A stretch of 64,000 bases of DNA from an uncultured Methanoregulaceae archaeon (GTDB taxonomy: Archaea; Halobacteriota; Methanomicrobia; Methanomicrobiales; Methanospirillaceae), in the NCBI GenBank assembly GCA_963841015.1, contig CAWJAX010000002.1, positions 160,001 through 224,000 on the forward strand. Direction: 5' to 3'. This document shows, piece by piece, positions 18,675 through 64,000 of the stretch. Numbering within the stretch: the first letter of the stretch is position 1; each line of letters opens with the position of its first letter. Under the pieces are notes generated by a model, which had not been told where the DNA came from, ran no database searches, and saw nothing but the letters and a program-made list of their open reading frames with translations. A program made the translations under genes and the position numbers.

Positions 18675-18946
18675 GGTGGGAGTCGGGCTCGTTAAAAAGA
18701 GCGGTCAGGAAAAAATTTCGATACCCTCCTTACTGCCAATGAAGTAAATCTGAGGGCCTGAAAGATCCCTCTTATAATATCCATTCTTTAAGATTTCTGT
18801 CTGGAAATGAACTACTCATCCTTGTTTGACGATAATCAGCACGGATATTGACCATGTTCAGGTTTCGTTTTGTGACCTATGGTTCAAAAACGTAACAGAT
18901 ACGCTCATATGGTTCTGCTTTGAACCTTGAAGACGGAACACCTCAC

Positions 18947-19090
18947 ATGTACGCAATCGAAGCACAGAATCTCCGCAAGTCATTTGGGGACGTCATAGCG
19001 GTAGATGACGTCAGTATTGCCATTGAGGAAGGCGGTATCTTCGGGTTCCTCGGCCCGAACGGAGAATTTTTAAGAGCTCGATGCCGTTGA
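18947..19090 (+). pseudogene. Truncated ABC transporter ATP-binding gene (N-terminal fragment)
   Basis: MYAIEAQNLRKSFGDVIAVDDVSIAIEEGGIFGFLGPNG then breaks inside Walker A. Confidence 0.8.
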
Positions 19091-19493
19091 TCTCCGGCAT
19101 ATCATAATCCACAATAATTGCATCAAAGGATTTTTCAAGCAGAATCTTAAGTGCTTCGGTTGCTGATTGACCTGAAACATATGCGGAAATTGGCGAAACG
19201 CCGACAGACCACGAATATGAGATTGCCTATAGAAAATACGAGTAGGTTTTCATGATTAAGCAGAGTAATCTGCTCTGTTTCTTATTCATTGTTGAATATC
19301 CAATGAGACAATTTTCAGTTTCCATCATTTTTAAAAAATCAGTATGGATGAAATGGAAACCTTTCTTTGTTGTGTTCTTCAACAGGGTCCTGTTGCATTA
19401 ACTGGACGAGCTTGCCGATTACTACACCGTTTCCTGCACCGTCTGCGATATCTGCTCTTGAAAGGGAATTAACGAATTTTTGAAAAGTAAATA

Positions 19494-20252
19494 TTACTGG
19501 TAGAAAGGAGGTTTGTAAGTCTCCTCACCATTGGCGTTACCGATAGTTCTCCCCGTGTAATACCGGAAGGACTGTACCATGTTCTCATAGGTGGCCTGGC
19601 TAAGTGTACCGTCGGGGGTCATCGTGTAAATCATTACCGGAATATACCCCTTCTCATTTGCCGAGGCCTTGTTACCGACCAAGATTACGGTCTTGGCCGG
19701 AGTTCCGGAATAGGGATCGCTCTTGGCATCAAACCGGACATAGGTGATCCCGTTATAGGTGACGGTAGATTCATCGAATACTGCAACGGAACTACGGATG
19801 ATATTCCGGATATTCTGGTCCACGCTGAGTGAAGTGGAGTAAGAGAAGATGGTCAGTGAGTCGGCAAGCTCGGTATAGTTGCCACTGTTGTCGTTAATGG
19901 TCCCGTTGGCCCCGCCAGTGGCCGGGTTGAAGACAGTTGTTTTATAGAGGATGTTGTTTTCGGACGTCGTCGCACGGATGGTTGTGCCAGCATACCCGTC
20001 CGGTGCGGAGATAGTAAAGAGAAGAGGTGTATCCTTGATGCTCTTCGGAAGGGGAACGGCGGGTGCTGTCGTTGTCGGCAGGGGAGTCATCGCTGTTGGT
20101 ACTGGAGTTGAAACAGTGGTCAGGCGTTCGGTTGGGACAGTCGTCGGCACCGGTGAAGGGGTCGGCTGGGGCTGGATGGTCTGGGTGCACCCGGCAATAT
20201 ACATTACTGCTATGACCACCAGAAAAAGGATAAAAATTGTTTTGTTTTTCAT
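19494..20252 (-). CDS. Secreted/lipoprotein-like hypothetical protein with Pro/Thr linker
   Basis: Signal peptide ending IAGC, PT-rich linker. Confidence 0.8.
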   Translation of the reverse strand: MKNKTIFILFLVVIAVMYIAGCTQTIQPQPTPSPVPTTVPTERLTTVSTPVPTAMTPLPTTTAPAVPLPKSIKDTPLLFTISAPDGYAGTTIRATTSENNILYKTTVFNPATGGANGTINDNSGNYTELADSLTIFSYSTSLSVDQNIRNIIRSSVAVFDESTVTYNGITYVRFDAKSDPYSGTPAKTVILVGNKASANEKGYIPVMIYTMTPDGTLSQATYENMVQSFRYYTGRTIGNANGEETYKPPFYQ

Positions 20253-20515
20253 AGTAACACCATAATAGGCTGTGTTGAATACATGGGGGAAATCTGATAA
20301 TTCTTTTGATAGTTTTCAATTTTTGGAAACAGATGGGATAAACCGGGATAATCAGGCTGTTGTACATTTTTCCGTTGATGAAGCGTATGAACCAAACCCG
20401 CATCATCACCCTGCCACAATCAGACTGACAAAAAAAAGTATTGCGGGTACAGCCATTTCTTTGTTTGTTTATCTGACAATCCCAACATAATTTGTTTTCC
20501 AGGTACAGGAACGTC

Positions 20516-20890
20516 TCACTTCTGGACTTTAACTAAATCTCTCTTAATCGCCATTTTTTTGATCTTTTCACTGATATTTTCGCTGTTTTCCATGCGATGC
20601 CATTCCTCGTTGCTCATTCCCATAAAAAAATCGCATTCCGAACATTTTATCCAGGCTTCGTAATGATCCGGGAATTCTGCGTGAAGTGCCGGTTTTCCAC
20701 ACTGAGGGCATACTAGTGTTTTCCCCTTGATCGAAACCGTAACCTTGGTCTCACGGTCATGGGGTTCGATCTTTCCCTCACCGGGAACTGGCTTTGGGTC
20801 ACGGGTTTTTGCATCCGCTGATCCGTGGTGGGGCGCTACGCTGCCGTCACCGCGGGCTATCCTTTCCTGTACTTTTAATTTGTCCGTCAT
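20516..20890 (-). CDS. Zinc-ribbon hypothetical protein (paralog of 56776-57145)
   Basis: CPQCG...CSECDFFMGMSNEEWHRMENS. Confidence 0.8.
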   Translation of the reverse strand: MTDKLKVQERIARGDGSVAPHHGSADAKTRDPKPVPGEGKIEPHDRETKVTVSIKGKTLVCPQCGKPALHAEFPDHYEAWIKCSECDFFMGMSNEEWHRMENSENISEKIKKMAIKRDLVKVQK

Positions 20891-21122
20891 AGTTGTTCAC
20901 TGGTTAAGCATCCGCTTTGCCAGCACCCAGGCAAGATGTGCCTTGAAGTCATCTGGGTGCATGGTTCCGGTCTGGCGGGTTCTGCCATGGGGTTTATCCG
21001 TAACGACCTCGTTTTCCCATTATCACCGGCCGGTAATAGAAATCATCAATCCCCTCGTGAGTTCTCAGCAATAAAGCAGGTGTTAAAACGGGTAGTTTAC
21101 AAAAAAAAGAAATTCCTGAACC

Positions 21123-21488
21123 TCACCGGTTTTCCGGGGAAAGTATACTGCCAATGTATTTCTGTATATAGCCGATGACAAATGGTGCCACAAGTGGTAT
21201 AATCATCGCCTGCATTTCATGCCCGAGACCTGGATGGCTTCGTTCCTCTTTTTGTCCAGCACAAGCACCAGGTGATGTCATCCGTGTAATAATTACATAA
21301 GCGGCTATTCCTCCAATAATCGCAGTAGCCGCTGCTGCAAACGGGTGCCTCCTGATCGTCCCGCCAACAGATCCGAGAGCACGGGAAGGTGCCTGGACAA
21401 CAGACTCTTTCAGCCGGCCGTAGGATTCGGCGATTAATGCTTCTGTTACAAGGAGGTCCTCTTCGGTAATCGATCTACGGTTTTTCAT
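21123..21488 (-). CDS. Hypothetical membrane protein, YqjK-like position
   Basis: RRHPFAAAATAIIGG TM segment; overlaps the upstream ORF. Confidence 0.7.
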   Translation of the reverse strand: MKNRRSITEEDLLVTEALIAESYGRLKESVVQAPSRALGSVGGTIRRHPFAAAATAIIGGIAAYVIITRMTSPGACAGQKEERSHPGLGHEMQAMIIPLVAPFVIGYIQKYIGSILSPENR

Positions 21489-21849
21489 TTTTTATCATCT
21501 CCGTTGCAAGAGGTGTCTTCAGAACGATTTTTTGTGTCAGGAGCACGTACGCCATAATTCCGCCAATAATAAAGATAGCAATTCCCGTGATCAGCAGGGC
21601 AGCCCAGAAAGGTAATACCGTTGCAATAAGGAAGATTATACCCATCCAGACAAAAAGTGTGCCAGCTGCCAGTAAGGTAACAATGATCGAAAGGATCATG
21701 ATCCTTGAGATGAGCAGATTAAAAGGCTCAAATACATAGTACTGCAAAAACAAATCCGTTTTCTGCCGTATATAAAGATCGATGAATTTGAACGTCGTGG
21801 CAAACTCCGACTCTATTGAAGGTTCTTCGGTACTGGCAGCCTCATCCAT
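21475..21849 (-). CDS. YqjE/phage-holin-family-like two-TM protein
   Basis: Two TM helices with PFWAALLITG. Confidence 0.7.
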   Translation of the reverse strand: MDEAASTEEPSIESEFATTFKFIDLYIRQKTDLFLQYYVFEPFNLLISRIMILSIIVTLLAAGTLFVWMGIIFLIATVLPFWAALLITGIAIFIIGGIMAYVLLTQKIVLKTPLATEMIKNEKP

Positions 21850-21860
21850 GGGATCCCTCG

Positions 21861-22199
21861 TTAGTCGCGTGCTTTGAAGAGAAGCATGCCAATGATAGCT
21901 CCGATACCCGCTGCGATCAGGACCGAGGGAATTGGATGATCGATGATGATATGTTCTACAGGTTCAACCTTTTTATGATACTCAACTTCGATTTTTTTAA
22001 ACTCGATACCTGCTTCGTCCCTGAACCGGTTCATCCGGGACTCGACATCCGCCAGGATATTCCTGACATCATCGGTTTGTTCAGATACGTTAACATTCCG
22101 CAGCTTGCGGGCAGCCTGTTCAAGTGCATCAGCTGTTTGAACTTTCATCTGGTCTGTCTTTACAATCGTTGAATCAATCATTTTTTCCGCCATTATCAT
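21861..22199 (-). CDS. ElaB/YqjD (DUF883)-like tail-anchored protein
   Basis: Helical N-terminus and C-terminal HPIPSVLIAAGIGAIIGMLL. Confidence 0.75.
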   Translation of the reverse strand: MIMAEKMIDSTIVKTDQMKVQTADALEQAARKLRNVNVSEQTDDVRNILADVESRMNRFRDEAGIEFKKIEVEYHKKVEPVEHIIIDHPIPSVLIAAGIGAIIGMLLFKARD

Positions 22200-22453
22200 G
22201 CAACTCCTTTGCCTGATAAGGTTTTTTTTAAATATCGTGATATAATAATTTTTTATACCCTTATCAGAGCAGGCTATCATAGTGTAAAACAATATATAAA
22301 TCTCCCTTGAAATTGCAAATTTTGAAACAATCCCTGGAATTTCCCCAGTTTCGAGTACAGGAAAAATATCGCTTGATCGTGTACAAAGAACCTGTAAGAA
22401 TCACTTCCCGTACACGTTATCGGGCTGCTGACTGGTCACCTCAATGGTAACAA

Positions 22454-23479
22454 TCAACCTTGGGAAGTCCCGGTCTTGGCATATTCTGCCTCTTCAGCGA
22501 GTATTTTATACCCGGTCACCGCGAGCGCGACGAGCACCGGGCCAATAATAAAACCCACAATACCCATAAACGGGACTCCGGCAAAGATGCCGATCATCAT
22601 CATGACCGGGGGTATTGCAACCCGTTTTCCCATCATCACCGGGCGGTAATAGAAATCAATCCATCCACTCAGAAGCGGATATCCCACAACAAGGGTGATA
22701 ACCGCACTCCAGGTTTGGCCGAGGCTCAGAAAATAGAAGGTGAAGAAGAGGATCACGATCTGGGCACCGATGAGCGGAATCAGCATGCCAAGACCGATCA
22801 ATGTTGCGAACAGGAAGGGATCATCAACACCCAGAAGGAAGAAGAACGGGATTGCAAGGAGAAATGCTATCAATGCAGCAGAAATCTGGACAATGATAAG
22901 AGCATAGATGGTATTGGCGGAAATTTCTGACATCCTGTCAACAGCCTGGCGAAGTTTTGGGGAAAGGGTACACGTCAGGGTGTCCCATATCTGCTCCCCG
23001 TAATACAACAACATGGAAAGTGAGAGAAAAAATATGATGATGGAAATAAGTGACTGCATGACATTGCCGGACAACGACAGGAGCGATTGCAGCAGTAACT
23101 GGATAAGTGTTTCAGGCATATTGGATACCTGTTTTTCCGTGAAGGTTGGCAGAAAAGCTGAAAAACCGGTATTTTTTAATCCGCTTACCATTGAGGTAAC
23201 CATGGTCCCGATATGGTCGATGCTGCCATACAATATGTTTGACGAGATCGATAGCACGAGCAGGATTACGAGGAGAACCCAGAGGGTAATGAAGGTAACG
23301 GATACTGATGGTTTTACCATTCCCGAAAGCCATTTATGAAATGACATAAGGGCGACAGCGATGGCAGCTGACCATATCAATACGGTCATGAGCGGCCAGA
23401 AAACCAGGATACAGACAATATAAATCGCAGCGATAAGGAGAACCACCTGCTTGTTTTCGCTTACCCTGATACGGTCCAT
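22454..23479 (-). CDS. AI-2E family transporter
   Basis: IPLIGA, DFYYRPVMMGKRV, GIVGFIIGPVL. Confidence 0.9.
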   Translation of the reverse strand: MDRIRVSENKQVVLLIAAIYIVCILVFWPLMTVLIWSAAIAVALMSFHKWLSGMVKPSVSVTFITLWVLLVILLVLSISSNILYGSIDHIGTMVTSMVSGLKNTGFSAFLPTFTEKQVSNMPETLIQLLLQSLLSLSGNVMQSLISIIIFFLSLSMLLYYGEQIWDTLTCTLSPKLRQAVDRMSEISANTIYALIIVQISAALIAFLLAIPFFFLLGVDDPFLFATLIGLGMLIPLIGAQIVILFFTFYFLSLGQTWSAVITLVVGYPLLSGWIDFYYRPVMMGKRVAIPPVMMMIGIFAGVPFMGIVGFIIGPVLVALAVTGYKILAEEAEYAKTGTSQG

Positions 23480-23610
23480 AAATATCAAATCTTTGGCATG
23501 AATTTTTCCTTGCTGCTCTCGAAACAGGGCAATTTCTTTATTGATAGTAACGTTAAATTTTCATTAAAATTTTATTTTTTTACCTGGCAAATTGGAACGC
23601 GAAAAAATAT

Positions 23611-23772
23611 TTAAAATGCCCCAAACAGGAAGGTAATAATCGCGATAATTATGAAGATAATTACCAGGATCTTCGCTATTTCCATAGAAAACCCGGCAAC
23701 CCCTCTGGCACCTAATATGTAGAACACTAATGCCAAAACCAGGAATACTACGGCGAGCCATATTAAATCCAT
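23611..23772 (-). CDS. DUF1328/UPF0391 small membrane protein (absent from the ORF track)
   Basis: [53 protein letters not shown]. Confidence 0.8.
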
Positions 23773-23784
23773 ACTCTTAACCTC

Positions 23785-24009
23785 CTACTTCTTCTTCAAA
23801 TCTGATCCGGCCTTGTGTACCGCAATTTTTGCGTCAGAAACCGCTTTGTGGACACCCATCTTTGCATCATCTGATACATTCTGTGCATCCTCTCCGGCAC
23901 CCTTCAGGGCATTATGTACGACTACCGATGCATCATCATATGCCGTATGTGCTGCCACGTTGGCGTCATCAGCGGCTTTGCTGGCTTTTACTTTTAGATT
24001 GTCCGTCAA
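23785..24009 (-). CDS. LEA-like hydrophilic protein with 11-aa repeats (TTG start)
   Basis: AADDANVAAHT/AYDDASVVVHN/VSDDAKMGVHK/AVSDAKIAVHK; SD ggag. Confidence 0.7.
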   Translation of the reverse strand: MTDNLKVKASKAADDANVAAHTAYDDASVVVHNALKGAGEDAQNVSDDAKMGVHKAVSDAKIAVHKAGSDLKKK

Positions 24010-24289
24010 TTCGTTTTCAACTCCCTTCCCTGATATGATTTTCTTCAATACATTATCATAAAATTTTTTTATCCATATCAGAGTATGCCCTTTTTTAATA
24101 GGATAGTATATACTTCTAACCTCTTTTTGCAAAATCTGAAACAATCGGGAATTTCCCGTGCTGATTACAGAAAAAATGGGTATTCTGCTGATTTTTGATC
24201 TTTCAAATTTTATAATAAAAAGGGGGTGATCACTCATCTATTTATGTTGTTGGCGGTAATTTCAAGCACCTTATACAAGAAGGAATCAA

Positions 24290-24502
24290 TCATTTCTTTT
24301 TCTTCGATTTTGATCCTGACCCGTGTGCAGCGCTTTTAGGAGCAGAAACAACTTTGTGTTTTACCTCATCTGATGCTTTCGGTACTTTCGTTCCGGGATG
24401 TTCCAACTGGTCAAGCGAAGCGGTGACATCATCATGCATTTTAAGGGTGGCTTTTTCTGATGCTTTCTCTGCTTTCATGGCTTTGCTGTCTTTATCAGTC
24501 AT
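24290..24502 (-). CDS. Small hydrophilic Lys/Ser/Ala-rich protein
   Basis: 70 aa, SD aggag. Confidence 0.7.
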   Translation of the reverse strand: MTDKDSKAMKAEKASEKATLKMHDDVTASLDQLEHPGTKVPKASDEVKHKVVSAPKSAAHGSGSKSKKKK

Positions 24503-24983
24503 AATGTCTTCAACTCCTTTCCCTGACAGGTATCAATGGAATTATTTTATATCCAATAATCATTCTACCGACACCAGGGCAGACTGGAATAAGGTTGAAT
24601 GAATATAAAATTCTTATTTGTTTTTCCAAAATCTGAAACGAACAAGAATTTTTCGTGTTGAGTGGCTGAGAACGCGAAAAAGAACATATACAATTCCGCT
24701 GGTCATCATTCGTAGGTATCGGCCATATCTCTTACATCGTACTTGTAAACCGAGCTGACTGAAACATCCAAAATACCTTAAAAATACATTTCATTTTCAA
24801 TTTTTGTAATATCAAATAAGTTTTATATGCAAGCTCATCGTGTAGTGTCATACTCTTGTGTGGTTATTTGATCAGGTGAAATTTTCGGATAATCCGCTAT
24901 CCCATAAAAACAATTTCACCTGGGAAAAAAGAACTGCATTTGCGAGAATGATGGGCAATCTCAGGAAAAACTTGGTGATTTAC

Positions 24984-25661
24984 ATGGATGATTTAACTTC
25001 ACGAGATCAGGAAAAAGCACGGGAAAAGGACCTGAAAGCCGAACAGGACCGGCAGCGGGATGAGCAAAAAGCCCGGGAACAGGCTGCAGAAAAAGGACGG
25101 AAAGAGGAACAGGACCGGCAGAAGGAACGTGAACAGGCGACAGAGAAGGGACGGAAACAAGGACTGGAACAGGAACGGGCACGGCAAAAGGCAAAGGGAG
25201 GTTCGGGGGGGATCATCATCGCCCTCCTTGTTGTTATTGTTATCGTCTTCGCTGCTATTGCCTGGTTCTCACTGAGCGAGACGGTTACCGATGTAACCCC
25301 AGGAACCCCGTTACCGTTCACGACAAACTATGCGGTTTCATTTCCTGAAGGCCAGACAACTACCCTCGGCAATTCCCGCATCAACGTAATGTGGTTCGAA
25401 AACGAGCTCATTACGGATATTGATGGCGCCAAACAGAAACTGGTGGTAGGTGAGGAAAGAGTTTTATCTGAACGGCGAGGGGTAACAAAAGCACTTGGCG
25501 TAATCACGCTTATGGATATAAACTATGTAATTAACCTGAAATATAAAGGTGAACGGGACGGCCGGGCGTACTTCGATATGGCAGTCCACACCTCAAAACA
25601 GGTACCGGATATCCTCCTCAAACGGATGCTTCCCCCCGAAATAGATGCACGATCCCCGTGA
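24984..25661 (+). CDS. Single-TM protein with charged coiled-coil repeats
   Basis: EQDRQ/EQAAEKGRK repeats, then a TM helix and an extracytoplasmic domain. Confidence 0.75.
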   Translation: MDDLTSRDQEKAREKDLKAEQDRQRDEQKAREQAAEKGRKEEQDRQKEREQATEKGRKQGLEQERARQKAKGGSGGIIIALLVVIVIVFAAIAWFSLSETVTDVTPGTPLPFTTNYAVSFPEGQTTTLGNSRINVMWFENELITDIDGAKQKLVVGEERVLSERRGVTKALGVITLMDINYVINLKYKGERDGRAYFDMAVHTSKQVPDILLKRMLPPEIDARSP

Positions 25662-25674
25662 GCGGAGGGTTTGC

Positions 25675-26364
25675 ATGAACATCAGGTATACAATCACATT
25701 TTTTGGAGTTCTGTGTATTGCACTCCTTTTCTCGGGATGCACCAATACATCCCCGCAAGTCCCGGCACCGACTCCGGTTCCCACTACCGCTGCAATGGTG
25801 ACACTCTCGCCAACCCCGACCGCAGTCCCCTTTCCGAATGCGCTGGCCCTGAATGAGTACGCCACCTTCGGGAGTGGGAATATGATCGGTAAGGCAACAA
25901 TCTACGGGTATGACATAAAACCAGGCTATAACTGGACGGCACCGTCATGGAACAGCCCCGGCGAGCAGGCAGCTGCATCCCAGCCGCTTGACATCCAGCG
26001 TGGTTATAACAGGGAAAAGCCTCAGGAAGGCAATACCTTCCTTTTCGTGCATGTCCGTGTCCTGAATACAGGGAAAAATGCCGTGTATGCTCCCTCAGCA
26101 AAACAGTTTGTGGTGAACAATAACGGGACGCTCTACAATTATTCGCCAGTCTATGGTTCCGATGTGATTATTGATAAAGTTCCGGGGACACAGTACGATT
26201 ACCAGATCGGGCGGGGCGGAACCGTCGGCTACATCCAACCCGGAGAAAGTAATGCTGCAGATGGCTATCTCATCTACGAAATACCGGCGACATTCTCTCC
26301 CAATACGACATACGTGGTAAGTAATCTCGACTATCAGAATAAGGCAGTATGGAAACTTGGATGA
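25675..26364 (+). CDS. Lipoprotein-like, DUF4352-like Ig-fold protein
   Basis: FSGC lipobox-like site, FLFVHVRVLNTG, IQPGES..GYLIYEIP. Confidence 0.75.
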   Translation: MNIRYTITFFGVLCIALLFSGCTNTSPQVPAPTPVPTTAAMVTLSPTPTAVPFPNALALNEYATFGSGNMIGKATIYGYDIKPGYNWTAPSWNSPGEQAAASQPLDIQRGYNREKPQEGNTFLFVHVRVLNTGKNAVYAPSAKQFVVNNNGTLYNYSPVYGSDVIIDKVPGTQYDYQIGRGGTVGYIQPGESNAADGYLIYEIPATFSPNTTYVVSNLDYQNKAVWKLG

Positions 26365-26737
26365 TTGAGGATGTTCCTCTATTTCTTTCAGTCACCAGCC
26401 AGGGGGGTAGACGCGAAGATGTATCCGGTCCCGGACCTCCCGTTCGGCCAGTATCCCATCTCCTGACGCGAAGGCACTGCAAAAATCTTATCCCCTGGCT
26501 TCTTACCAGATCAAGCACCGTAGAGCTTTGATCCCGATACATGGAAACATAAGGCCCAGATCTTCACCCTCATGCTTGATGTCCACATCGGTGCGAGTGT
26601 CCCTGCTAATGCCAACCGAACGCAAACATGAATGTCGCTGTGAACATTCAAGTTTTTTGAACCATCTCTACAGAGTCCAATTCAGCGCAAATTATAAAAC
26701 CAAAGGTGATGAACAGACACTTTAACGGAAGTAAATT

Positions 26738-26902
26738 ATGGACTGGCTCTTAACGCTTGGTATACTGTTTATCATTATTGCCGTTATATTTGTAATTCTT
26801 GGATTTATCGGGAGAATAGCATGGACAATTGCAAAGTGGATTATTATCATCTTGATTATCCTTGCGTTAATTTCCCTCATCATGGGAAATCCCCTCTTTT
26901 AA
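26738..26902 (+). CDS. DUF1328-like small membrane protein (absent from the ORF track)
   Basis: MDWLLTLGILFIIIAVIFVILGFIGRIAWTIAKWIIIILIILALISLIMGNPLF*. Confidence 0.7.
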   Translation: MDWLLTLGILFIIIAVIFVILGFIGRIAWTIAKWIIIILIILALISLIMGNPLF

Positions 26903-27583
26903 CGAAGCGCTCGGTGAAATATTCCGTGCCACATACGAAAATACCCCCACCCTGTTAAATGCAAACAGGTGCAACTATGCAATATGTCAAAAATTAACCT
27001 GCAACAAACTTTGAAGAAACCGTTTTCAGAATGGACAGATGAAGAGAAATTATTTTTTTTCATGATTTATTAGGTCATCACCATAGGCCGCCACCAGGAT
27101 ATAGCGAGACGATGCCGGATAAGGTGATCTATTCTCCCGATGAGAACCTTTTGTATCGGTTGAGTAAAGATTAATTTCTGCTCAATGGCATTCAAAATAA
27201 TCCGCGATCCTTGAGATCTGCCAACAGAACGCGAATATGAGGGTCCATGACCATGTATGATGGTTTAATGATAAGGAGGTAGTGAGTCCATCATCCACCA
27301 TGGGCGATAATTCTCACAACCCCTCACACGTTTTTTTAATTGTTGGCCAAGTGTCATCCTGCCGTATAGCCAACATTTGTCTCCAGTCTTATAATTACAC
27401 TCTTTACATGAGATCAACCTGAACAGAGCCATACCTAAGGAATTAAAAGCACATGTATAATTAATTCACAAACCGCTGCGGGTTCGACAAAAGAACCCTT
27501 TGATTATATCCTCACTGCCACGAGAAGAAAACCAATAAGTTCAAAATAATAAAAATCATACAAACCTTTTGTGGTGGTCATGT

Positions 27584-27808
27584 ATGCCCTGGGTCTCATG
27601 CAAAATATGTAACGGTAAAGGACAAATCTCTGACCCGAAGCAACCAGGATGGGAAGCAAAAGAATTCGGACAAAAATATAGAGAATGTCCAAATCGTGAT
27701 TGCCTAAGTGGAAAAATTTACATTAGCAAATACACGTCCGATTTTCATAATCAGTATGTGCCATCAGATCAGGAAATAGCTGCCCAAAAAACGAGAATCC
27801 AACAATAA
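27584..27808 (+). CDS. Small DnaJ-type zinc-finger-like protein
   Basis: CKICNGKG...CPNRDCLSGK. Confidence 0.55.
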   Translation: MPWVSCKICNGKGQISDPKQPGWEAKEFGQKYRECPNRDCLSGKIYISKYTSDFHNQYVPSDQEIAAQKTRIQQ

Positions 27809-28097
27809 AGTAAAATACAATTTTATCGGTGAGGATATAACCATCCCTTCAGTATATGAGATCTGCCAACCGAACGTGAATATAAACGTCTTTGCAACAC
27901 TTTAAAAGAACAGGGCGGAAACACTCCGCCCATTATAGGTGTTTCCGGGTTCCTTCAAGGCATTGGAGAGCTCGTCCTTGGGAGTTGGGTCGCAGAATGA
28001 TAGTGTGGAGTCATCGCTCTGATGACGTATCGAAAAGAAAATACATAAAAACATATCTCTTCTTAACAAATCTGGAACGCCAATATGAAGATTAAAA

Positions 28098-28286
28098 TTA
28101 ATATTTTTTTATTCCTGTTTTTATTCGAAAAAGAACGTCAGCAGTTAATACAGGAATATTATGTTCAGATTCCATGTGTTCAATGAGTTGTCTTATGATC
28201 TCTCGTTCAGTTGTTCCCTTTACTTCGAAAGAACAATCCATGCCCAGATCTCCGCATTTAATTGAAGCCAATGGAATGCGTTCCAT
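28098..28286 (-). CDS. DUF1059 small metal-binding protein, copy 1
   Basis: CGDLGMDCSFEVKG.TE.E....H...EH. Confidence 0.85.
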   Translation of the reverse strand: MERIPLASIKCGDLGMDCSFEVKGTTEREIIRQLIEHMESEHNIPVLTADVLFRIKTGIKKY

Positions 28287-28499
28287 TTCATCTGATCCTG
28301 GTCGTCCTTCCGATAACAACTGCATTCCTGATCTCCCGTTTTGTTCTGAATCTCCATAAGTAAGAACACCCTATCTTTTTCCTATAAAAGAGGAAATGTT
28401 TAAGATTATTCCCAAGAAACAGATTTTGACACAAATTTTGAAATAATCAGAGAATATACCCCGCCCTCAGTATCTGCCAACAGAAAGCGGATTAGAGAC

Positions 28500-28775
28500 T
28501 CACAAGACGCGTTCTGTTGAAAATGAACATCCTTTAGGAAGAGGAATATCCCCGTCGGGATATGTCGCGCACCGCCGAGGTCTCTTCTCATAAATTCCAC
28601 AGGTGTTATCTGATTGAAGATGCGGGCAGATATTTTGAATCCATAAAATTTCCGTCACGGGATTATATTCCCACCCCCTGCATGCACAATATTCAATATC
28701 ATCAGGAGTTGCATTTGCAAGGTGAAGTACGACCCATCGGCAGCACTCTCCACAGTGTCGGCATTCCGGTGGCAT
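28500..28775 (-). CDS. YkgJ-family Cys-cluster (Zn/Fe-chelating) protein
   Basis: CRHCGECC...CPHL...CGIYEKRPRRCATYP. Confidence 0.85.
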   Translation of the reverse strand: MPPECRHCGECCRWVVLHLANATPDDIEYCACRGWEYNPVTEILWIQNICPHLQSDNTCGIYEKRPRRCATYPDGDIPLPKGCSFSTERVL

Positions 28776-29012
28776 GGTAATTGTAAAAAATAGTATTTCG
28801 ATAATTAATGAAAATTTGCACGAATTGAAATCTGACAACAGAACACGAATATGACCATTTTATAATTTCTCATTCTGAATGACGATTACTACGGTACACT
28901 TTTTCATTACGCATAGTATATTTTTATAGATCCCTTAATTTTGAAAAATAAGGATAATTAGAGGGTATTTAGATATCTTCCAGAGGTAAAAGGTTATTAT
29001 TTTTATTGAATT

Positions 29013-29360
29013 CTAATCCTCCAAAAAGTCTGAGAGATGATATTTTTTTGTACTTAAATTAATAGTAACAGATTTTTCATTTTTTTTCGCATCACCGATA
29101 ATTTTTTCGATTCTTGGCATTAATTTTTTATAGACTTTCTCTTCTAATTCAGCCTTTTTTTTATTTTTGTCATCTATCCCTTTATCAAACGATATTTTGT
29201 AAATGGTTCCTAAAGTACCATAAGGATTCTTTACATCAATCAATATTTCTCCTTTATAGTCATTATCTGTAAGCCCTGTCTCTACTATACGAGGAGTTAG
29301 GAGAGTTAATTCATCGATATCAATCCAACTTTTCCCATCAGCCGTTTTTATCTTTGACAT
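29013..29360 (-). CDS. Low-GC hypothetical protein
   Basis: 115 aa AT-rich ORF between two motif copies. Confidence 0.6.
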   Translation of the reverse strand: MSKIKTADGKSWIDIDELTLLTPRIVETGLTDNDYKGEILIDVKNPYGTLGTIYKISFDKGIDDKNKKKAELEEKVYKKLMPRIEKIIGDAKKNEKSVTINLSTKKYHLSDFLED

Positions 29361-29582
29361 AAACGAGAATATAGTATATTCAGATAATAAAACATTCTTT
29401 TAAAAAAAGGGATATAACCCCTCGAGCCCCTGCTAACCGCTAACAGATCACGAATATGCGAGTTACATGAGAAGCAGGGTGTGGGAGACCCGATGAAAGT
29501 TGTGGAATATATGGATCCTCACAATGGTTATTAAATAATTTATTAATAAATTCTGGTCTATGTTTTACGCAAAGTGCTGGTC

Positions 29583-30005
29583 TTAGCTTTTATTGAGCAT
29601 TTCCCGTGCGAACTTTTTTGCGTTATCCAGGTCTTCGGTGCCGGGATGACCGCGGTTCACGAATAAAAATTTCCCTTTGCAGTGATAGCTTCCCATGACA
29701 GTGGCACCCTTCTGCTGCACCATATCCGCCATCACGGAGATCAGTTTTTGCCCTCCTGCAAGACTTGCCGCGGTGCCGAACAAGGCGACCTTGCGTCCCG
29801 TAAGGTTTCCGGACCCGATGAATTTCAGCATCGCCTCCCCTGGTTTACCACCATACGTACCACTGCCAAGGAACAGGAGCTGTGCGTCGTTTTGGGGGGT
29901 TGCCGCCACATCCATTGCCGTAATACCCACCTCTCCGGCGATGGCATCTGCCACTTTCCTGGTATTTCCACCCCGGGAATCAACCAGTACAGAAACTTCA
30001 GTCAT
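29583..30005 (-). CDS. Flavodoxin family protein
   Basis: SRGGNTRKVADAIA, LGSGTYGG, VALFGT. Confidence 0.9.
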   Translation of the reverse strand: MTEVSVLVDSRGGNTRKVADAIAGEVGITAMDVAATPQNDAQLLFLGSGTYGGKPGEAMLKFIGSGNLTGRKVALFGTAASLAGGQKLISVMADMVQQKGATVMGSYHCKGKFLFVNRGHPGTEDLDNAKKFAREMLNKS

Positions 30006-30731: not shown

Positions 30732-31544
30732 TCATATCCTTGTGATCAACTCACTCCGGGAAAAGATCCGGATTCCTGTCCAGATCAGGACGGCATCAAT
30801 GGCAAAGAACACCAGACCGACAAGGACTGCCACCAAAGGTGAAAGGAATAGCAGTCCCATACTCTGGGCAACCATCAGGAAAATAATCAGGATGACGAGT
30901 ATGCTGGATGCCTGGTAGGCTTCCATGAAAGTACTGACTCGTGTCGAGATGATCACCGTTGCCGAGACCCCGAGCAGGGCAACCGCGGGAACGACAAAGA
31001 TCATGAGGGCCAGCCAGCTCTCTGTCGGGAACCAGATCCTGCCCATGACCGGGTAGCCGGCAATGTTTGTCACAAGTGCAAAGATCAGGAAATTCACCCA
31101 GGTATACACAACAGCCGGAATGAATGAGGCAAAAAGTTTGCCGAGGAATAACTCTGCATCGGTTGCGGGTGTGTAGAGGAGGGCTTCCAGAGTCTTTCGC
31201 TCTTTTTCCCCGACAAATGCCTCTGCTGCTATCATGCACGAGAGGATCAGCGGCAGTATGAGGAAGAGCGGTGCGATGAGGTACCCGAGGATGAGGACAA
31301 TCGGGAATTGCGCGGGAGAGAGTGTTCCCATCTGTTCAAGAAAAGCCGCAGGAATGCTGGCAGACAATTCATCGAAAGAAGGCTGAGTGCTTCCCGTTGT
31401 GACGACAGCGATCTGGGTGATAAGAAGCGGAAGACCAATGGCAAATATCACGGAAAGCACGATAGCGCCGGAGACAGCAATACGGTTTTTTGCTACCTCG
31501 AAGAGATCCTTTTCCGCAATTGCCCGGATAAACTGCCAGTTCAC
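30732..31544 (-). CDS. ABC-2 type transporter permease
   Basis: AEAFVGEKERKTLEALLYTP...LFLGK. Confidence 0.9.
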   Translation of the reverse strand: MNWQFIRAIAEKDLFEVAKNRIAVSGAIVLSVIFAIGLPLLITQIAVVTTGSTQPSFDELSASIPAAFLEQMGTLSPAQFPIVLILGYLIAPLFLILPLILSCMIAAEAFVGEKERKTLEALLYTPATDAELFLGKLFASFIPAVVYTWVNFLIFALVTNIAGYPVMGRIWFPTESWLALMIFVVPAVALLGVSATVIISTRVSTFMEAYQASSILVILIIFLMVAQSMGLLFLSPLVAVLVGLVFFAIDAVLIWTGIRIFSRSELITRI

Positions 31545-32485
31545 AGGACACTCCCTCCCTGGTCCTGGACGGCAAAATAAATCTCCTCAAGCGAGTAATC
31601 CCTCGGCGTGATTCGGAAGATCTCACCGCCATTGCTTACCACGATCCGGATCACTGCCGGTACAAGATCTTTTTGTGCAACCCTGATGGTTACCGTGGTA
31701 TCAGCCTGACTGTCAACAATTACCCCTTCCATCTCCCGTATCTTACCGATGACAGAAGACGGCGGGGGGGTGAGAAATTCCATTTCCACGGGCACTGCTT
31801 TCCAGAGTCGCTCCGTAAGATCATGGATACTTCCCTGGGCGAGAATCTTTCCTTTATTGATCATCGCCACGCGGGAGCAGAGGTGCTGGGCCTGGTTGAG
31901 ATTGTGCGTACACAAAAAAATTGTTTTTCCATTGTCCGCTGCGAGCTCCCGGATAATCCCCTCCACCTGACGTGATGCTTCCGGGTCAAGACCCGAGGTA
32001 GGCTCATCCAGAAAAATAACCTGCGGATCGTGAATCAGTGCACGGGCAATCGCAAGACGCTGCTTCATGCCTTTTGAAAATCCGCCCACCGCTTCATCTC
32101 CCCGATCTGCAAGATGCAGGAGCGAGAGGATCTTATTGACCCGCTGAGGGATATCTGCATCAGGAATACCATAGAACCTGCCAAAGAAAGAGAGATTCTT
32201 TTTTGCGCTGAGGCGTTCATAGAGCGACGGGGTTTCTGTAAGCACACCGGTCCTTGCCCGGACGTACGCCCCATCAACCGTCACATCTTTGCCAAAGAGG
32301 ATCGCTTTTCCTGAGGTAGGTGTCAGGACGCCGTTGAGCAGCCGGACGAGGGTGGTCTTACCGGAACCATTCGGTCCGAGAACGCCGAATACTTCTCCTT
32401 CCTCGATAGAGAAATTGATCCCATCGATTGCTGGAGTGCTGCCAAATGTCCGTACAAGGTTCTCTCCCTGGATTATCGGGTTCAT
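31541..32485 (-). CDS. ABC transporter ATP-binding protein
   Basis: GPNGSGKTT, FSKGMKQR, FLDEPTSGLD. Confidence 0.95.
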   Translation of the reverse strand: MNPIIQGENLVRTFGSTPAIDGINFSIEEGEVFGVLGPNGSGKTTLVRLLNGVLTPTSGKAILFGKDVTVDGAYVRARTGVLTETPSLYERLSAKKNLSFFGRFYGIPDADIPQRVNKILSLLHLADRGDEAVGGFSKGMKQRLAIARALIHDPQVIFLDEPTSGLDPEASRQVEGIIRELAADNGKTIFLCTHNLNQAQHLCSRVAMINKGKILAQGSIHDLTERLWKAVPVEMEFLTPPPSSVIGKIREMEGVIVDSQADTTVTIRVAQKDLVPAVIRIVVSNGGEIFRITPRDYSLEEIYFAVQDQGGSVL

Positions 32486-32559: not shown

Positions 32560-32680
32560 TCCGCGATTGGTTTTACGCACGATATGACCTCACCAAAAAG
32601 AGTATCTCGCAAAAATAGTCGGGGTGAGAAGAGAGACCATTCTCGCCATTGAAAAAAAGGTACTGCTAGCCCCCGGTAAA
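32560..32680 (+). pseudogene. Remnant of an XRE-family HTH regulator
   Basis: Across frames: ARYDLT / YLAKIVGVRRETILAIEK. Confidence 0.6.
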
Positions 32681-32729
32681 ACCGGTACACGGTATCGCAG
32701 ATGTCCTGCACACGATAACTATCCAACAG

Positions 32730-32990
32730 CTAAACGAGTTTTCTTGCTTCTTCGGCCGGGATGGCAACCATGGTCTCTATATCCAGAAAGTGTGACCGGC
32801 GCATGGACAATTGCATTGCTTCCTTTTCATTCGGGGCTTCAATTATCGCCACAGCATCGTACCTGCCGAGTGTCCAGTCGATACTCAGGTATTTAATCCC
32901 CTTTTTTGATTCTTCTTCAATCATTTTTAAGTTCTCAGAAATAAAGTCCCTGGGCTTTGTTTTGAATTTCACCAGTGCAATGAAACGCAT
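32730..32990 (-). CDS. GYD domain-containing protein
   Basis: WTLGRYDAVAIIEAP...ETMVAIP. Confidence 0.88.
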   Translation of the reverse strand: MRFIALVKFKTKPRDFISENLKMIEEESKKGIKYLSIDWTLGRYDAVAIIEAPNEKEAMQLSMRRSHFLDIETMVAIPAEEARKLV

Positions 32991-33180
32991 AACTCACATC
33001 CTTTTCCCCAACACAGGTGGTATGGGTTGCTTTGGTATTGCTCATACACTATTTAACAGCACTCGCGGGTTACAAATTTTGAAAAAAGAGCAGCACTAAA
33101 AAAACAGTTGAGAGAAGCCAGATCTGAACCCTGTCCCCCTGGTATCTGCTGGCGAACGAAGATATATGGCGTTTTTTTGT

Positions 33181-33327
33181 TTAGCCTGTTTTACTTTCCT
33201 GGAATTCTGTTAATTGCATCGGCTCTCCATGGCAGAGAATCTCTCCCCCACCGGCTTCTGGTACAAGAACAACATTTCCCCAGACAGTACAACGGTACAC
33301 TTCGCCAGCTTTTTGAACATTTACCCT
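33181..33327 (-). pseudogene. Desulforedoxin-like small Fe protein, degenerate (AGG at the start position, CxxC reads CTVW)
   Basis: VNVQKAGEVYRCTVWGNVVLVPEAGGGEILCHGEPMQL...*. Confidence 0.65.
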
Positions 33328-33467
33328 TTGGGGCCTCTCACAAGCTTGTTGATTGTATTTTTTATTTTCATAAGGAGAGGATAATATTATGGATATCGTC
33401 AGATGTAAAAATCAGAACATCTCTTTTTCACCGTAAGAACAGATCAATCACGGGACCCATGATATTT

Positions 33468-33885
33468 GCCAACAGAACGCGAATTGTTGTTAAAAAACAA
33501 CCGGTTTATTTCATTCCTTTTCCACCCGAATGACGTCCGCACAGCAGAGTTCCGCTGCTTCGGCAGCACAATCCTCGAATTCTGCAGGAAGTCTCCCCTC
33601 CGCCTTGTTTCCGTTCAGCTGATATTTTTCTCTCACCTGGCTGAATGAATCGTCAGGATTCTGTTCGAAAATGTCCGGGCAGGTCTCCCAGCAGGTTCCG
33701 CAGATGGAGCAGTTTTCTCGATTCAGCATTATTTTCATGATCCAATCCTCCTTTCCTTTTCACCGCATGGCTACGATAGTGCCCTTTATCAAGCCGAAGG
33801 CTTTCACCCGGTAACCAAACAGCCCCTTCTTTACTCGTGAATTTCCTCACGACCATTGAGATCTGCCCAAAGAACACGCGTCTGA
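33468..33885 (+). repeat. Further copies of the cassette-boundary motif
   Basis: 33468 GCCAACAGAACGCGAAT (17 exact); 33856-33885 TTGAGATCTGCCCAAAGAACACGCGTCTGA; weak copy near 33143. Confidence 0.75.
33511..33738 (-). CDS. Ferredoxin (single-cluster type)
   Basis: CSICGTCWETCP...AAELCC. Confidence 0.9.
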   Translation of the reverse strand: MKIMLNRENCSICGTCWETCPDIFEQNPDDSFSQVREKYQLNGNKAEGRLPAEFEDCAAEAAELCCADVIRVEKE

Positions 33886-34176
33886 AAACGGTAACGGAGT
33901 GGGCGGGTTATTACTCCGCCCATATCATGAAGGTATAATCCAGTTCCCAGGTTTTCAGGCTTCCCGGGAGAAGCACGCGAAACAGGATCATTGCCATTCA
34001 TAGTTCAAGGTTTGAGAGAGCTCCTCCTACGGAGTTGGGGCAGAGTGATAGTGCGGAGTCATCTCTCTGATGAGTTATCGAAGAGAAAATAGATAAAAAT
34101 ATTCATAAAAAACAAAATTTGAAACGAATTTTGGAAATTGTAAAAATCAGCTTACCTCGTACCATAAAGATTAAAA

Positions 34177-34365
34177 TTACAATTTTTTTATTCCTTTCTT
34201 TATTCGAAAAAGAACATCAGCTGTTAATACAGGGATATTATGTTCAGATTCCATGTGTGAAAGTAATTGTCGTATGAGTTCCCGTTCAGTTGTTCCTTTC
34301 ACTTCGAATGAACAATCCATGCCCAAATCTCCGCATTTAATTGAAGCCAATGGACTGCGTTCCAT
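34177..34365 (-). CDS. DUF1059 small metal-binding protein, copy 2
   Basis: Near-identical to 28098-28286. Confidence 0.85.
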   Translation of the reverse strand: MERSPLASIKCGDLGMDCSFEVKGTTERELIRQLLSHMESEHNIPVLTADVLFRIKKGIKKL

Positions 34366-34685
34366 TGCACCTGGTACTTCCCGTCCTTCCCGTAACGACT
34401 GCACTCCTGATCACCAGTTTTGTTCTGAATCTCCATGAGTAAGAACACCCTTCGTTTTTTTTATTAATGAGGAAATTGTTAAGATTATTCCAGATAAACA
34501 AATTTTGAGACAAATTTTGAAACATTTGAAGAAAGGGACCATCTGCAATCAGAAGGGAACGATGTCCATCGGAACGCAGCAAGCTCCATTCATTATTCCA
34601 GGGGTCGATACACCTCATCACCGAATTGTTAATGAGACATCATGTGCAGACTACACACAAGGAAAATCCACAAAAATCCGCTATC

Positions 34686-35711: not shown

Positions 35712-35961
35712 CGGGAGAAACAGGGATGCAGCGATTGGCTTCCCGCCCGAATTTTTATACGCACCATAAGACCCGGAGACCGGGTCAGCCCATTGCTGCC
35801 TCCCAGATGGGAGGACGGGCTCCGGACCGGGACTCACGAACATCGCCCAGGGGATCCACTTGGAGCGAAGCGTCACTCCTGTAATTTTTGCGATTTTTTA
35901 CAGAAGACTGTGTTTTTTTTATTAATCCAAATTATAACGAATGGAGAAAAAACGGATATAC

Positions 35962-57254: not shown

Positions 57255-57519
57255 GCTCTGTAGAAACGCACATGAGTCACGGACTCAGGCAAACATGATG
57301 AATAACCGTGGGTTTTTCCTGGTAATTCCTTTTCCCTTGATATGAAATTCAAGATGCTGGTACGAATGAAGGAGGGGACAGTGCCTGTCCCGCCATGCCG
57401 CCCCTGCGCTGAGCGATGATGACGCAGCACCTGTTCGGGAGGTATCGCATCGGCGGAGCCACAGCGGCGGGGGTGAAACCCCCTTGAGCGTTTAGCTTGG
57501 AATTGAATATTTCTACAGA
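57255..57519. mobile_element. MITE copy 1 (with an extra ~58-bp segment after the left end)
   Basis: GCTCTGTAGAA...TTCTACAGA ends; body matches the reverse complement of 63693-63899. Confidence 0.8.
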
Positions 57520-57593
57520 TCAGTTATTTGCTATTTTTGATTTCAGGGTATTTTTTGAACGTTTTGATTGATTCCCCGTTGTGAGCACCGCTC

Positions 57594-61357: not shown

Positions 61358-61564
61358 GGTTCTCTAGAATTCCTGTTCTTTTTAAGAGGAAATTCAAAGC
61401 AGGGGTATGATGATTGAGGTGACCGTGCCTGTCCTCCATACCACCCCTGCGCTGAGCGATGATGACGAAGTACCTGTTTGGATTTTATCGCACCAGGGGA
61501 GCCATAGTGGCGGGGGAGAAACGACCCTGAGCGTTTCGGTAGTAATGAAGTATTTTTCAGAGCC
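61358..61564. mobile_element. MITE copy 2 (diverged)
   Basis: GGTTCTCTAGAAT...ATTTTTCAGAGCC ends; shares cccctgcgctgagcgatgatgacg and other blocks with copies 1 and 3. Confidence 0.7.
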
Positions 61565-63654: not shown

Positions 63655-63692
63655 GAGGGGTTATGGGAGTGGGTAGTTTTTCCTTTTTTTTT

Positions 63693-63899
63693 GCTCTGTA
63701 GAAATGTTCAATTACAAGCTAAACGCTCAAGGGGGTTTCACCCCCGCCGCTGTGGCTCCCCCAACGCGATAACTCCCGAACAGGTGCTACGTTATCATCG
63801 CTCAGCGCAGGGGCGGCATGGGGGGACAGGCACTGTCCCCTCCTCCATTCATACCAGCATCTTGAATTTCATATCAATGGAAAAGGAATTCTACAGAGC
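63693..63899. mobile_element. MITE copy 3 with perfect 11-bp terminal inverted repeats
   Basis: GCTCTGTAGAA (63693-63703) and TTCTACAGAGC (63889-63899); non-coding and hairpin-rich. Confidence 0.85.
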
Positions 63900-64000
63900 C
63901 CTTTTTTTAAAAAGGAATACGAACGGTGTGACAATACTCTTTTGTTCCAACCGGAGTCTGTCTTATCCCCTGTTCATTGTATGCATTGGTTCAGGTGAGG

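Follow-up and report, generated by a model that had tools for sequence, protein, structure and literature searches.

A candidate gene-cassette exchange site, without a visible enzyme, in a subclade of Methanoregula

Integrons, with the integrase IntI and a folded attC site as their defining parts, are almost the only setting in which the capture of gene cassettes is known. In the sedentary chromosomal integron of Vibrio cholerae a near-identical site is reused over hundreds of cassettes within one lineage, and each of these V. cholerae repeats is a structured attC of ~120 nt, with intIA alongside. At dif, arrays of integrative mobile elements exploiting Xer (IMEX) consist of small modules bounded by short sites and moved by the housekeeping recombinase, and the sites of dif modules alternate in orientation. 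Here we describe arrays of small genes in a 64,000-nt stretch of DNA (the window) from an uncultured Methanoregulaceae archaeon, which is C2:160001-224000 of its source assembly (G000; 2.28 Mb, 5 contigs, 94% complete). The genes are separated by co-oriented copies of a ~25-bp word, (A)TC-TGCCAACAGAACGCGAATATGA. We put the chance at about even that this word is an undescribed site for the site-specific exchange of gene cassettes in a subclade of Methanoregula, a methanogen of peat and fresh water. We found no description of the word or of the arrangement in the literature on archaeal integrons, attC cassettes or Methanoregula repeats; the supplementary lists of metagenome-assembled genomes in PMC9668308 might include Methanoregula.

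A co-oriented word that separates small units

A repeat search of the window recovered the 22-nt word TGCCAACAGAACGCGAATATGA as one co-oriented direct-repeat family of 7 copies, all on the + strand. The 22-nt cores begin at 19199, 26610, 27219, 27864, 28475, 28833 and 29438 (the corresponding 34-nt repeat windows at 19192, 26603, 27212, 27857, 28468, 28826 and 29431), and the start-to-start spacings are 7411, 609, 645, 611, 358 and 605. At <=3 mismatches the consensus gave 4 matches in the window when 0.00 were expected from 100 dinucleotide shuffles. A position weight matrix (PWM) was built from the 7 copies, which as its training set score by construction. Scanning the window with this matrix added two + strand copies, at 33467 and 33864, and three decayed copies were placed by homology or reading. 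The original prediction had proposed a recurrent same-orientation site here, and all seven of its same-strand copies, including the solo copy near 19200, were confirmed; it had missed 33467, 33864 and the decayed copies.

The solo copy, CGCCGACAGACCACGAATATGA (19199..19220), lies ~135 nt past the point where an ABC ATPase gene (18920-19090) is cut short. Copy 1 (26610..26631) is the left end of the main array, and synteny with G063, the closest relative among the genomes compared (91-94% identical), passes through it. Its left flank, CCCTGCTAA, is common to the last copy, copy 6 (29438..29459), which is the right end of the array and the place where synteny with G063 stops. Between them lie copy 2 (27219..27240), letter-identical to the consensus, copy 3 (27864..27885), copy 4 (28475..28496) and copy 5 (28833..28854). 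A decayed motif at 27516..27539 matches the word in 12/22 letters, and a doubtful one at 26960..26989 (TGCAAACAG...AATATGT), with a longer middle, is not scored by the PWM. A second small array holds a copy at 33467..33488 and decayed motifs at 33864..33885 (PWM 14.4) and 34544..34565 (14/22 letters matching). All of these copies are on the + strand. The decayed motifs at 27516-27539 and 34544-34565 were recognisable because a good copy occupies the homologous position in paralogous units, namely in the copies of the first unit on contig C1 of G000, in G063 and in G016, and at 28475 for the second.

The same pattern was found well beyond the window. Across the whole of G000 there are 20 matches at PWM >= 18, compared with 1 for the PWM read backwards; another copy lies within 5 kb of 9 of these 20, and the neighbouring pairs so formed are co-oriented in 7/7 cases. 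Of 81 genomes in the genus, 47 contain the 21-mer (<=3 mismatches), often letter-perfect, where a backwards-read control gave 2 matches; the 16 genomes from other genera of the order contain none. Array-type copies are abundant in, for example, G066, G087, G008, G063 and G000. The exact 19-mer was present in at least 120 metagenome contigs and gave 0 matches in viral contigs. We found 185 copies at PWM >= 18 on 120 of the metagenome contigs (479.7 kb), spaced 248-4417 nt apart with a median of 711. Two or more copies are held by 48 of these contigs, 46 of which keep all copies on one strand, and neighbouring copies are co-oriented in 63 of 65 pairs (first 80 contigs: 32/33 contigs, 43/44 pairs). 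Among 41 units from the first 80 contigs (median length 649 nt, median GC 0.39) the largest open reading frame (ORF) lies on the minus strand in 24 and on the plus strand in 16, and one unit has none. Direct repeats round every unit, irrespective of gene direction, fit the insertion of a circle that carries one site and do not fit a promoter, a terminator or a fork barrier.

The contents of the metagenome units are unrelated, comprising Cys-rich small proteins, HTH, TPR and membrane proteins, S-layer-like surface proteins and a 580-aa sensor. The only recurrent large ORF families on these contigs are NHL-type surface proteins, none of them recombinase-like.

Turnover of units between strains and a possible exchange point

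Boundaries of insertions and deletions between G000 and G063 were compared in four regions. We found that G063 lacks window 26637-27863 and 28486-28845 and that one motif copy remains at each gap. The G063 alignment thus runs from 24800-26636 directly to 27864-28485 and from there directly to 28846-29458. Junction 1 is a single hybrid motif, in which the left half and flank of copy 1 are followed by the right half, GAATATAA, and right flank of copy 3. At junction 2 a shortened motif links the left flank of copy 4 with the right flank of copy 5. Past copy 6 (29438), the flavodoxin and ABC genes sit ~60 kb away and inverted in G063. We considered inversion between inverted motif copies as the cause of this rearrangement and rejected it, since the remaining breakpoints have no motif. 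The second array lies in a 1.95-kb block (32653-34604) that is absent from G063.

Individual units also recur in other settings. The unit at 27219-27526 is found motif-to-motif at C1:26605-26920 of G000, at G063:C2:160267-160572 and in G016:C67. The unit at 28496-28869, which is missing from G063, recurs alone at G066:C31:74882-75254, and the unit that holds the 115-aa orphan has a different left neighbour in G041 (G041:C19). Pieces of the array on contig C3 of G000 are scattered at other loci of G063, G066 and G087, and one of them ends within a motif. The earlier suggestion that presence and absence between strains should break at the motif therefore held: at the G063 gaps and at the recurrent units the breaks fall exactly there.

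One freshwater metagenome run yielded contigs with other orders of the same units, joined at or within ~30 nt of the motifs. The joints are 28443->27223, 29407->27220, 27001->28871 (one contig, next to the doubtful motif at 26960-26989) and 28820->28892/28900, and a further joint, 28050->28409, takes out the DUF1059 gene only. Two joints that lead backwards, 27240->26645 and 27240->26641, may represent only the motif copy of another strain and were not counted as circles.

A dispersed MITE-like (miniature inverted-repeat transposable element) repeat of ~210 nt (75-92% alike) lies elsewhere in the window, at 63691-63901, 57325-57522 and 61358-61536. It occurs at more than 80 places in G000 and is also abundant in G063 and G048.

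From 54 array-type copies we found that positional information is confined to the word of 22 nt and to the ATC immediately upstream of it, and that the flanks carry none. Many copies have a loosely placed box ~30 nt upstream, CATAGAAAC..TAC..CGCGAG or ATATAAGCGTTGGTACC, which resembles a diverged direct repeat of the word. Folding with DNA parameters in 3 windows around each of 9 window copies gave a significant hairpin for 1 of the 9, copy 4 (28475, downstream window, z = -3.7), while the other 26 windows had z > -2. Copy 4 is also the sole copy with an inverted partner, CGCGTTCTGTTG at 28508-28519. Reading the word as a conserved C-terminal peptide (...ANRTRI*) was rejected, since the conserved block upstream shifts frame between copies. 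A search of the window at the Rfam gathering threshold, and of 8 loci of the motif or of the dispersed element described below at E <= 1, gave nothing relevant.

We asked which letters of the word travel together, using 257 distinct copies with 31 pairs that share the left flank and differ on the right and 15 pairs that share the right flank and differ on the left. Variant letters at position 3 and positions 13-15 follow the left unit, and positions 16-22 and those beyond follow the right unit. This switch in linkage agrees with junction 1 of G063. Together the two suggest a single exchange point between positions 15 and 16, with ...AACGCG on its left and AATATGA on its right.

These observations led us to a tentative model. 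In its boldest form, which we hold at somewhat less than even confidence, cassette capture here would be analogous to that of an integron and mechanistically distinct from it, using an asymmetric, unstructured site of ~25 bp, a fixed exchange point and a non-IntI enzyme acting in trans (a protein of an unknown kind, or XerA on a non-dif site), and it would circulate self-expressed small accessory genes among wetland and freshwater methanogens. In the model at large, to which the about even chance given above applies, each unit would be small (about 250-1,500 bp), AT-rich and transcriptionally complete, with its own promoter and terminator. A unit would leave by recombination between its two flanking co-oriented copies, presumably as a circle, and would enter when its single copy recombines with any copy already in place. 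Since entry through a single copy would always leave direct repeats, arrays would grow whatever the direction of the gene. In this model every exchange would take place at the one point between positions 15 and 16, which would then be a fixed cleavage point. The reaction would be driven by an enzyme rather than by homology. That enzyme would not be encoded beside the arrays; it would be a protein not recognised so far or else, by elimination, the XerA-type recombinase found throughout the genus, working on an atypical asymmetric site.

The units of the window have a GC of 0.27-0.45, compared with about 0.5 in the flanking DNA, and look like complete transcription units with their own promoter and terminator. 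It had been predicted that each interval holds one small unrelated gene, which was confirmed in part; the interval 27241-27863 holds two units. Unit 1 carries a 54-aa hydrophobic membrane ORF (26738..26902, +) with its own promoter region. This ORF has no Pfam match, and its earlier label as DUF1328-like was not confirmed. A paralogue at C5:110298-110535 of G000 shares the promoter region and has no motif flanks. Unit 2a (27219-27526) codes for a 55-aa Cys-rich ORF (27265..27432, -), and unit 2b for a CxxCxGxG zinc-finger ORF of 74 aa (27584..27808, +; 74-79 aa) with a homologue in metagenome cassette L149. The labels DUF1059, YkgJ-type and flavodoxin stood up by Pfam. Unit 3 is the DUF1059 gene (28098..28325, -; E 1.1e-16), with a hairpin terminator at 27911-27931 and conserved upstream and 3' regions. 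Unit 4 codes for a CxxCxxCC (YkgJ-type) protein (28503..28775, -; E 6.9e-8). Unit 5 holds the 115-aa AT-rich orphan (29013..29360, -), found otherwise only in 3 Methanoregula-type records and with only a sub-threshold match to Spo16_N (16.4 bits against a 27-bit cut-off). Neither the two zinc-finger ORFs nor the 115-aa ORF had a match above the Pfam cut-off.

After copy 6 comes the flavodoxin gene (29583-30005, -). In the second array the ferredoxin gene (33511-33738, -) precedes the motif at 33864, which opens a duplicate of the whole DUF1059 unit (33864-34565) with the second DUF1059 gene at 34177-34404 (-); the motif at 34544 closes it. The truncated ABC gene that had been noted before the solo copy was borne out: 36 aa of it match the N-terminal end of the ABC ATPase at 31541-32485 with 50% identity, and it ends in the Walker A motif.

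Several further features were seen around these units. A conserved non-coding block in the 3' region of both DUF1059 genes (27960-28040 and 34010-34090) reads ...GGAGTTGGG..GATAGTG.GGAGTCATC.CTCTGATGA..TATCGAA.AG, includes CUGAUGA and has no Rfam match. Near the motif pair on C1 of G000, two small paralogous Cys-rich ORFs (...PCRKA(D/E)C..WR.G.C..IR...) occupy C1:19096-20187, and a homologue of them sits within metagenome cassette L141. The AT-rich stretch 19494-24700, which is probably part of the same flexible region as the arrays, contains internal duplications (21010-21056 ~ 22623-22670 and 22201-22367 ~ 24018-24177), small membrane ORFs and an AI-2E transporter paralogue of one on C3. A 267-aa ORF (24858-25661) has three 54-nt tandem repeats at 24998-25171 that code for a Lys/Glu/Gln-rich stretch. 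A scan of the window for tRNA genes found none, and the word is therefore not a tRNA-gene fragment. A ~125-nt repeat at 35798-35920, which is not a tRNA, has 5 further copies in G000 (84-89% alike).

The search for an enzyme and the competing explanations

G000 encodes one PF00589 tyrosine recombinase, a XerA-type protein of 306 aa (C2:368983-369900). Its orthologues are found across the genus at about 120-130 bits, and PF00589 matches occur in 73/81 genomes. Since the Xer gene is present whether or not the motif is found, its presence is uninformative. The number of PF00589 matches is 1 in G000, 2 in G063, 3 in G066, 2 in G087, 1 in G056 and 1 in G089, and extra integrases set against motif counts over the 81 genomes gave no pattern by eye. 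In G000 there were 0 matches to PF00239 (serine recombinase), PF01797 (Y1), PF07282 (TnpB-type), PF01548 (IS110) and PF16795 (SSV-type integrase), DDE transposases and reverse transcriptases not having been searched. PF04986 (IS91) matched 1 of 41 genomes of the genus, which was not G000. On the 120 metagenome contigs the sole integrase-like sequence is a XerA fragment ~390 nt from a motif. The original prediction had seen no recombinase in the window, and ORF lists and Pfam agree for 18-36 kb; the co-occurring IntI or Xer-like enzyme that it suggested looking for came down to the universal XerA-type gene, which does not track the motif. A 190-nt tandem repeat of at least 4 units, each with AATCCAGATAACTCTAATTATATCCAAT, begins ~750 nt past the end of this gene (C2:370653-371250).

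Several results weigh against site-specific cassette exchange. None of the enzyme families searched tracks the word. Dyad symmetry, described as crucial for most tyrosine recombinases (PMC8371274), is missing from the site: mean complementarity reaches at best 0.45 over 9 informative pairs, compared with 0.24 for random column pairs. The linkage analysis rests on few pairs that are not independent. Junction 2 of G063 is imprecise, with a motif shortened by 6 nt. The ends of the ~60-kb inversion have no motif apart from the copy at 29438, and neither has the left edge of the absent block 32653-34604. Other repeats, for example the 210-nt MITE, are also found at G000/G063 breakpoints. Finally, none of the 120 metagenome contigs with the exact 19-mer is circular (0/120).

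The word also has a second context. It is the 3' subterminal part of a dispersed repeat of ~285 nt, where it is followed by GGNTCGTTTTTT. G000 has 8 full copies (70-80% alike) together with separate 5' and 3' fragments. Four of the full copies are on the 166-kb contig C4 (C4:21696-21985, C4:37021-37308, C4:17098-17380 and C4:110075-110360), and the others are at C3:499177-499464, C5:583301-583588, C5:545506-545795 and C5:458485-458770. The last letters of the repeat are ...GAATATGAGGNTCGTTTTTTCCGA, blocks in its interior such as GTTTGCCAAAATACGGCAGATTTGCACCTC are strongly conserved, and it is tipped by short inverted repeats (GGAAAATACGCCC ... GGCTCGTTTTTCC). Relatives hold 2-9 copies of it, and in more distant species (G053, G089, G071 and G020) the word lies mainly within it, kilobases apart. 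In the complete genomes G053:C1 and G089:C1 the motif matches are all on the + strand (10/10 and 9/9) across 0.15-3.05 Mb. Folding lends little support to a structured RNA as an explanation of the element: its consensus fold is weak (-10.6 kcal/mol; reverse strand -14.8) and it has no Rfam match. The element may be an RNA gene, a MITE or a carrier of the site.

This context is the starting point of the main rival explanation, which we regard as rather unlikely, although the lack of an enzyme and of a dyad, the one imprecise junction and the breakpoints at other repeats keep it alive. Here the word would have another primary job inherited from the ~285-nt element, maybe in protein binding or related to termination, and homologous recombination by RadA or slippage between copies of 22-30 bp would passively delete, duplicate or Campbell-insert DNA. 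The 8 full copies in G000 and the predominance of the ~285-nt context in related species count in its favour. Yet 22-28 bp is short for homologous exchange, the word is better kept in the array copies than within the G000 elements, and the linkage switch at 15/16 is abrupt rather than gradual. Passive recombination also leaves unexplained why the word brackets nearly every small accessory unit in many genomes.

The same repeat could be read as a mobile element whose right ends were left behind. In this explanation, which we consider improbable, the array copies would be remnants of a repeat like a MITE or insertion sequence (IS), produced by repeated or one-ended insertion at a hot spot and carrying or trapping neighbouring genes. 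The short inverted letters at the tips and the weak fold suit such an element, its 5' and 3' fragments each occur alone, and one ~285-nt copy lies at the edge of a 10.3-kb G000-specific island. The array copies, however, have neither the last ~12 nt of the element nor its 5' end, no target-site duplication was seen at the 8 full copies, and the DNA between array copies consists of unrelated single genes. No transposase of the Y1, TnpB, IS110 or IS91 type was found in G000, where the DDE type was not searched.

A purely regulatory or punctuating word is more improbable again. It would be an operator upstream of the promoter, a terminator or a roadblock shared by small redox or stress genes of one regulon, spread by ordinary gene duplication. 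Several units do code for small proteins of a metal or redox type (DUF1059, CxxCxxCC, ferredoxin and flavodoxin), the word tends to be followed by a T-rich tract, and a TATA-like box lies 20-40 nt upstream of many copies. But the strand of the word is constant while the genes point both ways, and its distance to gene starts and stops in the window ranges from 7 to 213 nt. The paralogue of the 54-aa gene lacks the word and still has the promoter, unit contents range over unrelated proteins from TPR, HTH and S-layer-like types to the 580-aa sensor, and insertions and deletions break within the word itself.

The likeness to an integron that had been predicted (an L box, a spacer and an R box starting with GTT) is resemblance only, and a canonical integron or a cluster of attC sites lacking an integrase (CALIN), as reported in Archaea, is scarcely credible and already largely refuted. 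In its favour, co-oriented sites do separate single genes, GCCAAC in the left part of the word has a loose likeness to the inverse core RYYYAAC, the inverted partner of copy 4 ends in GTTGAAA and most archaeal integrons are CALINs (PMC9668308). Against it, only 1 of 9 copies folds and there is no dyad, the site has 22-28 bp where a folded attC is longer, neither G000 nor the surroundings of any array yielded an IntI, and the genes run in mixed directions in units that look to have their own promoters.

A site-specific reaction is favoured over these alternatives because of the co-orientation of the copies, the motif-to-motif units, the hybrid junction and the abrupt switch in linkage. That the copies are recombination sites of a gene-capture system, as originally predicted, is thus still the best reading, and the system is possibly an undescribed one; the integron part of that prediction falls away, and its tyrosine recombinase stays a candidate.

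Comparison with described systems

A lineage of abundant wetland methanogens shows integron-like behaviour of the genome with a site of quite another kind and without a visible enzyme. If the reaction is driven by an enzyme, it would amount to a new system of site-specific recombination and to a new path by which accessory genes flow in methane-producing archaea. If homology alone is at work, a conserved 22-bp repeat can organise a flexible gene pool without the enzyme of a mobile element. Being short and defined, the site could be a probe for collecting the pool of cassette genes from metagenome data.

With MITEs and solo IS ends the word shares its place in a dispersed ~285-nt repeat with short terminal inverted letters, and repeats mark strain breakpoints. 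It differs from them in that array copies hold a stretch of 22-28 nt only and that neither a target duplication nor a transposase was found, the DDE type not having been searched. The repeats of V. cholerae are long and structured and accompany an integrase, whereas the site here has 22 nt, no structure and no integrase. The array copies are all direct repeats on a chromosome, unlike the alternating sites of dif modules. The pdif modules (XerC/XerD) of Acinetobacter plasmids are similar in being small, bounded by short sites and served by a housekeeping recombinase that the module does not encode, and the sole tyrosine recombinase of G000 is likewise of the Xer type. The pdif and dif sites (PMC2958812 and PMC8371274) are 28 bp long, with two 11-bp inverted arms and a 6-bp spacer, while the word has no dyad. 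For the same lack of a dyad a dif-like site was rejected, and the inner arms of the P. abyssi dif (PMC2958812) gave no convincing dif in G000.

The integron remains the nearest comparison. The attC site, an imperfect inverted repeat of the form R''-L''...L'-R', folds into a hairpin as a single strand, whereas the word is asymmetric and ~25 bp long. Integron cassettes are mostly promoterless, lie in one direction and are read from Pc; the units here lie either way, appear to have their own promoter and terminator, and are without IntI. We looked for a conserved array platform and found none in G041, G075 or G008; arrays do not keep a fixed place, and an attI/Pc platform is lacking. Since CALINs lack IntI too, a missing IntI alone does not exclude membership, and arrays without a neighbouring integrase are common in integrons. 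Like the cassettes and CALINs of integrons, including the archaeal ones of Ghaly et al. 2022 (PMC9668308), the arrays have short co-oriented sites between single, unrelated and mostly small accessory genes. Gain, loss and reordering take place at the site in both, and the model of a circular intermediate with one site fits the arrays described here.

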